From a virus (taxonomy: Duplodnaviria; Caudoviricetes), in IMG/VR virus record IMGVR_UViG_3300006169_000163, positions 1 through 24,589 of that record: DNA of 24,589 nucleotides, one strand, 5' to 3'. Below, one piece after another: positions 3,440-7,038 of the stretch. The translations under genes and the position numbers were made by a program. The notes beneath the pieces were generated by a model. It saw only the letters and a list, made by a program, of their open reading frames with translations, ran no database searches and was not told the DNA's origin. How positions within the stretch are numbered: position 1 is the first letter of the stretch; each line of letters begins with the position of its first letter.

Positions 3440-3487
3440 TCGACGTGATCAAAGGAAACTGACGGACCGGATCGTAGGTCTGTCTCG

Positions 3488-3533
3488 AAGCCACGGAATA
3501 GGGCCATGCCTATTCCGTGGCTTTTTCTTTTTT
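3488..3533 (+). terminator. intrinsic terminator
   Basis: 15-bp perfect stem AAGCCACGGAATAGG/CCTATTCCGTGGCTT plus a T-tract. Confidence 0.85.
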
Positions 3534-3579
3534 GCCACCGAACCGACGGAAAATGGAAGTGGCGTGCATAGCTACTTCC

Positions 3580-5289: not shown

Positions 5290-7038
5290 ATGGCAAAGAG
5301 GGTTCCGAAGAAACAAGCAAAGTCGATCGATCTCACATGGTGGATCACAGGCCCGAACGATCAGAAGGCTCTCGATGAAGGATGCTTCATCGACCCGTCT
5401 GAAGGCGAGTTCATCTGTGACTTCATCGAGAAGTTCATCAGATACAGCGGCGGTGATGAAGTCGGACAACCGGTGAAGCTCCTCGAATGGGAGCGCTCAT
5501 TCATCATGCGTCTGTTCTCTTGGCGACGACCGAAGCCCGATGGTCGTTCAGTTCGCCGCTACTCTTCGGCGAGCGTGTGGATATCCAAAAAAAATGGTGT
5601 CTTGCCCCGGTGACTTCGGATGTCACCGGGGCAAGACACCGAACTCGGTAAAACAACACTCCTCGCATGGTTGATCGTCGCGCTACTTGTGGCAGACGGT
5701 GAACCACGATGTGAAGTCTATTCGGTCGCGAACTCGACGAAGCAAGCCAAGAAGATCCTCGAAGAGATCGGTCGAGTGATCAAGGCAAGCCCTGAACTCT
5801 CATCGATCCTCGAAGTTATTCCGTCCGCCGGTCGCGTGATCTTCTCGGCGACGAACAGCTACTTCGAGGTCTTGCCGAGTCGTCCATCTTCCGTCGAGGG
5901 CGTGGACGGGCACGCGGTAATTTTCGACGAGCTTCACAAACAACGCGATTCGGAATTGTGGGCGGCTCTTGAATGGGCCGGGTCGGCGCGAAGGCAACCT
6001 CTTTGCCCGGTGAGCATATCGACCGCTGGTGTACTCGATCCGACGGCGATCTCATGGCAGGTTTACCAGAGGGCGAAGGCGATCATCTCGGGTGCTCTTG
6101 AGAACACGGACACCCTCGCGATCGTGTATGAGATCGAGCCCGAGGATGAGTGGCGAACGACTCTTGCCGATGGCTCACCGAACCCGAAGGCCGAGGCAGT
6201 ATGGCGAAAAGCGAACCCGTCTCTCGGCTACACGATCGACCTCGACAAGTTCCGTCGTGAGGTCGAGAAGGCCGAGAAGGATACACCTTCAGCACAAGCC
6301 GACTTCGCTCGATACAGGTTCGGGGTCTGGTGTGGATCTTCCGACCCTTGGATCTCTGACACGGACTGGATGGCTTGTGCCGGTGAGCCGCTCAAGCCCG
6401 AGATCGCCAGCACACTCGAATGGTACGGCGGTCTCGACCTAAGCTCGACGACCGACGTGACCGCTCTTGTGTTGACGACGAAGTATGAGGGCACGACCTA
6501 CGTCGTGCCGTTCTTCTGGGTCTCCGAGGAACAAGCCAAGCTCCGGAGTCACCGAGACAAGGTGAACTATCTGAACTGGGTGAAGAGCGGCGACATCCGC
6601 GAGACCGAGGGCGCCGGTATCGACTACAGCAAGATCCGGAAGGATATCGTCGAAGACATCGGCCAGAAGTTCCCGATCGTGAAGCTCGGCATGGACCGAT
6701 GGAACGCGACTCAACTTGCTCAGCAACTCGCCGACGACGGACTGAACGTCGTGTGGCGGGGTCAAGGGTACAAGGATATGGACCCGCCGACGAAAGAGAT
6801 CGAGCGACTGATCGTGGCCAAGGAACTCTGTCACGGTGGTCCGGGGTCGCCGGTGCTTCGCTGGATGGTTGGCAACGTGATGATCCAACGCGACGACGCC
6901 GGAAATATCAAAGTCTCGAAGAAACGGTCACGAGAAAAAGTGGACGGTGTCGTCGCTCTCTGTATGTCGATCGGGGCTTCGATGATCGCCGAGGCCGCTC
7001 CGTCGATGTATGAGTCGGAAGGTGTGTTCGTCGTCTAA
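5290..7038 (+). CDS. terL: terminase large subunit, interrupted by a 51-nt coding gap (joined 5290-5598 + 5650-7038, 565 aa)
   Basis: The N-part has L.EW....I..LF.W and RRY....VWISKKNG. The C-part has KTTL, Walker B IFDELH, ISTAG, W.KANPSLG, GLDLSSTTD and K.DGVVA. Both parts are in the same frame, separated by a TGA at 5611. Confidence 0.9.
5596..5649 (+). other. putative translational bypass element (GGT take-off, hairpin with stop, GGT landing)
   Basis: GGT 5596-5598 and GGT 5647-5649; perfect 19-bp inverted repeat 5596-5614/5622-5640; loop TTCGGAT; in-frame TGA 5611-5613. Confidence 0.65.

Follow-up and report, generated by a model that had tools for sequence, protein, structure and literature searches.

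Hairpin-filled coding gaps at the terminase P-loop of uncultured phages as a family of probable translational bypass elements

To our knowledge, programmed long-distance bypass in bacteria is limited to gene 60 of phage T4, its homologues and the short gaps of the Streptomyces phage Hau3. Ribosome hopping is a decoding mode with very few known natural cases. The available part of a study of T4 gene 60 and its homologues in myovirus topoisomerase genes (bioRxiv 2022.08.31.505936) describes gaps of about 50 nt between matched or wobble-matched codons, a take-off codon on the 5′ side of a stem, a site that shifts by one codon together with a change of codon (Gly/Asp), and a mobile insert that near relatives do not carry. 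The terL locus described here and its relatives are alike in all these respects, the change of codon being Gly/Asn. The byps in the mitochondria of Magnusiomyces capitatus are likewise short mobile inserts (27–55 nt) present at several sites (accessible part of PMC5009743). In Hau3, as proposed here, the bypass is located in a terminase gene, and in Hau3 it is supported by mass spectrometry in E. coli (accessible part of PMC10732093).

The gap under study was found in the terL gene of a 24,589-nt stretch of DNA (IMG/VR record IMGVR_UViG_3300006169_000163), referred to below as the window. This gene encodes the DNA-packaging motor of an uncultured phage and belongs to an intact HK97-type head module. 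On the plus strand, the module contains the terminase small subunit gene terS (4736–5194 bp, PF05119), terL, and the portal, prohead protease and capsid genes (7068–11,094 bp; PF04860, PF04586 and PF05065), all with open frames. The portal protein (7068–9044 bp, 658 aa) has a long acidic C-terminal extension past its Pfam domain (residues 46–370). For the nearest TerL homologue, the only relative with a solved structure is chain 6z6d_A, which we take to be the HK97 terminase. Close relatives of the window phage were not found, the best identity being 39% among viral contigs and 53% among proteins. A planctomycete is the likely host, given that Planctomycetes are the source of the named TerL relatives. 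A TerL relative was present in 32 of 401 genomes of this phylum, and the 21 P-loops there that were readable by the pattern were all unbroken. Terminator-like hairpins were located on the plus strand at 3487–3534 and 5236–5272 bp; one of them lies between terS and terL, so terL expression may need read-through or a promoter of its own.

The 5′ part of terL (5290–5598 bp, plus strand, 103 codons) ends with WISKKNG, the first half of the Walker A motif. Up to KKNG it is 52% identical to the N-terminus of P0002 (E 1e-28), the closest TerL homologue (53%), which has no gap and reads WVAKKNGKTT. An A-tract, AAA AAA AAT (Lys Lys Asn, 5587–5595 bp), which travels with the Gly-class elements described below, abuts the 5′ side of a hairpin. 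It is followed by the GGT of the P-loop Gly (5596–5598 bp), the predicted take-off codon, which makes up the first three bases of the stem. The coding gap occupies 51 nt (5599–5649 bp), that is, 17 codons in frame, and related gaps of 46–51 nt were found in other phages. It includes an in-frame TGA as its fifth codon (5611–5613 bp), an unpaired spacer GAACTC (5641–5646 bp) and a second GGT (5647–5649 bp), the predicted landing codon and the first GG past the stem. The next codons, AAA ACA ACA, open the 3′ part of the gene (5650–7038 bp, 462 codons from KTT), in which the ATPase and nuclease domains are intact (PF03354, PF20441) and which aligns with P0002 and P0003. Re-reading of the sequence returned the same gap, GGT codons and TGA as the initial annotation. 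Its statements that removal of the gap gives 565 codons with a whole P-loop and that the remaining TerL motifs are intact were borne out as well. An unbroken P-loop of the KKNGKTT type was found in nearly all of the 120 proteins listed, the exceptions being partial proteins and four proteins with an intein.

The hairpin (5596–5640 bp) has a perfect 19-bp stem with arms at 5596–5614 and 5622–5640 bp. All 19 pairs are Watson–Crick pairs, and GGT 5596 pairs with ACC 5638–5640. Thus, folding confirmed the perfect stem that had been described as starting at the first GGT, and the family model and covariation in relatives agree with it. The C-TTCG-G reported earlier at the loop is present as sequence; it does not form a tetraloop in the long-stem register, where the loop is the 7-nt TTCGGAT. 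The 111-nt region around the gap had a folding energy of −51.8 kcal/mol (z −6.56), none of 200 shuffles was as stable, and perfect stems in 20 triplet-shuffled windows reached at most 7–11 bp. The hairpin is not a product of chance. Two decoy Gly triplets are located out of frame inside the gap (GGT 5609 and GGC 5630), both of which a hop must skip, and a mini-Shine–Dalgarno sequence 5–7 nt before the landing codon is absent in the window. A weaker stem-loop was predicted at 5546–5572 bp, about 25 nt before the take-off codon, in a position like that of the T4 5′ stem-loop.

The exact window hairpin had no matches in viral contigs or in metagenome contigs, and its 16 matches in genomes had nothing in common beyond the stem pattern. 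A search for P-loops with a repeated Gly codon gave 28 loci, two of which were terL genes with a similar hairpin. A refined pattern built on these two loci and requiring GG at both ends gave 77 loci, 44 of them near terL and 41 with a related hairpin at KKNG|KS. With a pattern of the hairpin only, all 47 matches were located in terL, as were 11 of the 12 matches in a metagenome scan. Patterns of the codons only gave 38 matches, none of them in terL, and a further 120 matches (4 of 64 parts of the collection) without a P-loop gap. Loci L241, L281 and L283 were left out because the pattern matched outside their P-loop. Many contigs had been fetched repeatedly; after duplicates were removed, 43 non-redundant loci remained, and 33 distinct elements of 46–51 nt at the terL P-loop were obtained, including that of the window. 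The loci are related by descent, and these counts are not independent events.

The window element is 52–70% identical to the others. A covariance model of 26 hairpins, from which that of the window was excluded, had its best match in the window at 5599–5637 bp (26 bits, E 6e-5). An assembly artefact is unlikely, since a model made from the hairpins of other phages alone matches exactly there. The window element had no counterpart among cultured phages, in which the region of a relative matched terL coding sequence only. In 151 genomes of the likely host phylum, two unrelated weak matches were obtained (44 candidates scored per genome). The possibility of a dispersed host palindromic repeat (REP/MITE) was considered and rejected, as there was one copy per record in all five carrier records analyzed.

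Across the family, the stem is GC-rich, has 17–20 bp, fills most of the gap and starts at or just after the take-off codon. The spacer is A/C-rich and 2–8 nt long. The loops of the relatives vary (4–7 nt), and a UUCG or GNRA tetraloop is not conserved. In L347, L348, L350 and L359, the hairpin is located one codon upstream, in a 46-nt gap bounded by AAT and AAC (Asn class). L422 has no P-loop insert and contains two related 50-nt hairpin gaps further on, both of which match the family model: CTG...CTG with a UUCG loop (975–1027) and the unmatched TGG...AGA with a GAGA loop (1083–1135). In L370 (about 2490–2545), a 51-nt gap ends with TGC instead of GGN (GGC...TGC) and terL is otherwise open.

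Two further hairpins were noted outside terL. A non-terL gene of the 175-kb viral record L128 has, between GGC codons after KNG, a stop-containing 53-nt hairpin (1501–1567) that is possibly an unrelated coding gap. In the window, a second perfect hairpin (2535–2579 bp, 21 bp, AAA loop) spans the stop of the ORF 2411–2569 and the ATG of the ORF 2566–2721. The distance from GGC 2537 to GGA 2587 is exactly 50 nt, and a hop there would fuse the two ORFs. This hairpin may be another bypass, and a translational-coupling hairpin is equally likely. It was rejected as a member of the terL family (8.7 bits with the family covariance model), and homologue searches gave none for either frame.

In the alignment of the terL stems, 99.1% of the cells were paired, five of 17 pairs were changed on both sides and eight never varied. 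The covariation score was reached by none of 500 shuffles, though related sequences can beat shuffles without any structure. G-U pairs were counted 62 times across the family versus a single A-C; therefore, the selected structure is on the mRNA strand, and the stem acts as sense RNA. Alignment of the terL homologues, which the initial annotation had suggested, thus revealed relatives with and without the gap, and a stem that covaries.

Gap lengths of 46, 47, 48, 49, 50 and 51 nt were found in 4, 9, 9, 1, 6 and 4 elements, respectively, and cover all three frames. A stop is present inside all 13 in-frame gaps and 8 of the 20 frame-shifting gaps, and is missing from 12 of the 33. It stands next to the take-off codon in none of the 33, the first stop being met after 4–100 codons. 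When the flanks were left free, the triplet at the 3′ end began with the same two bases as the codon in front of the hairpin in 46 of 47 loci; likewise, both ends share their first two bases in 32 of the 33 distinct elements. The landing site is the first GG after the stem core (24 of 25 elements). The repeated codon tracks the insertion site, being Gly at KKNG|K, Asn one codon upstream and Leu (CTG...CTG) in L422. Peptidyl-tRNA re-pairing predicts a 3′ end whose sole defining feature is that it copies the last codon read. Whatever the mechanism, a Gly-class element needs Gly at one of its two end codons, and a repeat at the ends would also result from a short target-site duplication. Third-base mismatches among the 33 elements are GGY to GGA (four) and GGG to GGT (one), and 27 of the 33 pairs are readable by one tRNA under standard wobble. 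The mismatched Gly pairs fit bypass because in T4 mutants a GGA tRNA lands on GGU and GGC, according to the available part of bioRxiv 2024.12.09.627546. Two inserts break the matching rule, namely that of L370 and the second one of L422 (50 nt).

Translational bypass, in which ribosomes would hop over the gap, is the best reading of the family and is probably correct. We infer the hop from the insert, its family, the selection on terL, the sense-RNA stem and the codon match that follows the site. Bypass between matched codons, as proposed in the initial annotation, remains the best-supported reading, given the codon repeat that tracks the insertion site, the three frames and the gene under selection.

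An unlikely rival is a minimal intron: the mRNA would be cut by a host or phage nuclease at the stem base and again behind the spacer, and its halves would be rejoined by a ligase. Such excision would agree with the selection for structure on the sense strand, with a 5′ boundary that in the Gly and Asn classes alike lies invariably two bases ahead of the CTTG core, and with the eight invariant stem pairs, as a protein-binding site might show. It would need no tRNA match in the unmatched insert of L370 and the second insert of L422, and these two misfits keep the RNA-excision model alive; as the 3′ triplet of L370 is TGC, only its 5′ GGC can supply the P-loop Gly. However, the 3′ boundary has neither a constant sequence nor a constant distance (the spacer varies, and the ends are GGN, AAC or CTG), and the sole rule for it is the copy of the upstream codon seen in 46 of 47 loci. 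The gaps are also far below the size of self-splicing introns. Group I, group II and other known introns were rejected, as no Rfam intron model matched in 2000–7100 bp; in this region, no Rfam family reached a useful score and only sub-threshold hairpin matches were obtained. Informal inspection of the computed folds showed no bulge–helix–bulge motif. RtcB was found in none of five carrier records, three of them near complete, although a host enzyme could act instead.

Removal at the level of DNA or transcription, with a polymerase slipping across an extruded hairpin between short repeats, is very improbable. As DNA, the window stem is indeed a perfect palindrome, and its ends carry a direct repeat. 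However, the repeats are only 2–3 nt long, and DNA cruciform deletion fails to account for the G-U excess, which favours one RNA strand. Precise loss would also leave AAA AAA AAY scars, and none was present in 40 insert-less alleles (56 loci compared, of which 13 had no readable P-loop and three were carriers).

The carrier terL genes were then analyzed for signs of decay. The full 3′ frame is open (444–462 codons) in 38 of the 43 non-redundant loci, and the other five reach the contig end. In 17 close pairs picked from the tree, dN/dS was 0.011–0.169 downstream of the gap and 0.05–0.36 upstream. The relaxed selection in insert carriers that the initial annotation had considered was not seen. 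The element itself is often better conserved than silent sites, with 49 of 50 bases retained at dS near 1. The split terL is the only terminase found in five carrier records, three of which are 96–99% complete (searched with P0117 and PF03237). Thus, the terL flanks of carriers are open and under purifying selection. It is accordingly highly doubtful that the insert inactivates terL in a dead prophage or beside a helper terminase, or that it is an assembly error or a minus-strand terminator. In favour of these readings, the hairpin with a U8 is terminator-like on the minus strand, and a second terL is possible in the window's contig, where the search covered 24.6 of 54 kb. Against them stand open frames and a low dN/dS throughout a long-branched clade, the single terL of the three near-complete carriers and the same element in many independent assemblies. 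A minus-strand terminator also fails to account for the G-U pairs, which would be A-C mismatches on that strand. If bypass is true, a terL called broken in metagenomes may be a working gene.

Stop readthrough, frameshifting, or two chains with re-initiation at ATG 5620 can be dismissed almost entirely: although the window gap is in frame with an ATG of the 3′ frame inside it and gene callers give a 472-aa protein, the gaps span all three frames and 22 of the 33 have no in-frame restart codon, so these modes cannot serve the family, in which six frame-shifting gaps have a 3′-frame stop inside, and they would place 15–17 unconserved residues or a chain break between the P-loop G and K, which are unbroken in homologues.

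If ribosomes bypass the gap, the peptidyl-tRNA-Gly would detach from GGT 5596 and, once past the hairpin, pair again with GGT 5647; the predicted product is a 565-aa TerL in which the P-loop is whole. A trigger consisting of the hairpin and the A-tract is proposed because no stop or rare codon follows take-off: the first A-site codon is GTC in 20 of the 33 elements, GCC in 8, TCC in 2, CCC in 2 and CTC in 1, and GTC is the commonest Val codon in the large genes of the window (89/164). This trigger is less certain than the hop: the ribosome could pause on the A-tract and the GC-rich stem. The hairpin, starting at or just after the P-site codon, might then refold in the A site and block tRNA entry, taking over the role of T4's stop codon and A-site loop, and the tRNA would come down on the nearest matching triplet beyond the stem. 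Ribosomes failing to hop would stop in the gap or run out of frame, so that no TerL with a padded P-loop would be made; the TGA in the window gap looks like a safeguard against in-frame read-through, not a trigger. In the available parts of the cited papers, consecutive AAA codons make E. coli ribosomes pause and slide (PMC4363877), and a long stem-loop, aided by a purine stack, can dock in the A site and keep tRNA out (PMC7282821; PMC8861025). The spacing of such stem-loops from the P-site codon is 11–12 nt in these sources, and here the hairpin is adjacent.

The A-rich flank, which had been described as unusual for this gene, proved to be so: AAA AAA AAY is present in all 43 Gly-class loci found with the hairpin-only pattern versus none of the insert-less alleles, and AAA accounts for 141 of 723 Lys codons in the remainder of these genes. 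The A-tract is not a general requirement, since it is missing from the Asn class and the L422 sites, and it may be a hitch-hiking part of the cassette instead of a pause signal. The upstream peptide is conserved terminase sequence, and its conservation cannot separate a nascent-peptide signal from its role in TerL.

To evaluate the mobility of the cassette, the carriers were placed among other TerL proteins. The window TerL is 31–41% identical to those of the other carriers and clusters with the insert-less P0002, L291 and P0003 (support 99). A single clade of the window and the other carriers was rejected by the AU test (p = 0.00014, 34 rows), the group having been defined after a first tree had been seen. 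Since the window TerL belongs to a different clade, the cassette is likely mobile. Among near-identical, P0117-related alleles, it is present in 3 of 43 readable ones, and in these carriers the stretch of recoded codons begins about 9 nt ahead of the cassette and ends 6 nt behind it.

A free-standing HNH_3 endonuclease gene (4230–4895 bp) overlaps the start of terS at a distance of 700 nt from the gap; the C-terminal part of its product is presumably AP2-like. A homologue of this gene was found in none of 99 carrier loci, many of which have short flanks. Long HNH frames upstream were present only in L215, L259, L350 and the window, and short HNH genes in carriers and non-carriers alike; among the carrier loci compared, no endonuclease is consistently linked to the cassette. 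Inteins are inserted at KKNGK|S in P0063, P0067, P0088 and P0094, which belong to the same TerL family, and P0088 contains a LAGLIDADG domain. Recombination at the conserved P-loop could spread the cassette together with its recoded flanks, and the cassette may persist because it destroys the target site of homing inteins, whose insertion point is one codon away. By analogy, immunity to homing is a possible benefit of the cassette, and such immunity has been reported for gene 60 (Manning and Atkins, available part of bioRxiv 2022.08.31.505936).

These features suggest, tentatively and with somewhat less than an even chance, a portable bypass element. Its 17–20 bp hairpin would drive a hop of about 50 nt without a stop, a rare codon or a linked endonuclease, and would work after Gly, Asn and Leu codons at several sites. 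Such an element would move between distant phage lineages with recoded flanks and shield the P-loop from homing inteins. If true, it would be a splicing-free counterpart of the intron and would bear on what drives ribosomes forward in bypass. The natural variants (three frames, three codon types and two mismatches) are a ready mutational series for one reporter.

A comparison with known systems indicated that the terL family is distinct from each of them, and a hairpin-gap family in terL was not found described in the open-licence PMC and bioRxiv literature. P-loop inteins of terL (P0063, P0067, P0088 and P0094) are similar in being parasitic inserts into the same TerL family at a distance of one codon; they differ in protein splicing, in their length (140-plus residues, in frame) and in that some carry a homing endonuclease. 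The byps are alike in that several per gene are possible, as in L422, and some codon matches are imperfect. They differ in having an unused A-site codon and loose mitochondrial decoding, whereas here bacterial ribosomes would read common codons such as GTC and GCC (accessible part of PMC5009743). The first Hau3 junction, ...KGWG|KD, seems to fall at the G|K of the P-loop as well. However, the Hau3 gaps are 7–10 nt long, start with a rare UUA, are proposed to be regulatory and have no long gap-filling hairpin in the part of PMC10732093 accessible to us; in the terL family, the gaps are 46–51 nt and no TTA follows take-off, so the Hau3-type signal is absent. As for T4 gene 60, the likeness claimed in the initial annotation holds for the matched codons and the gap of about 50 nt; it does not extend to an adjacent stop (0/33), a conserved UUCG loop or a mini-SD, the triplet of which is present in only 13 of 33 elements. 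As far as the gene 60 source is available, the T4 system further differs in being a MobA-type endonuclease element in a topoisomerase large-subunit gene, whereas the window element lies in terL and is unrelated in sequence. The terL family is distinguished from it by a GC-rich stem of 17–20 bp across most of the gap, and has no stop or rare codon at take-off, no conserved UUCG/GNRA loop or mini-SD, no AU-rich tract and no consistently linked endonuclease. The window adds a GGT-bounded copy in a distant TerL clade. If true, a second bypass family, unrelated to that of T4 and without its adjacent stop, tetraloop and mini-SD, would show which signals are truly needed.
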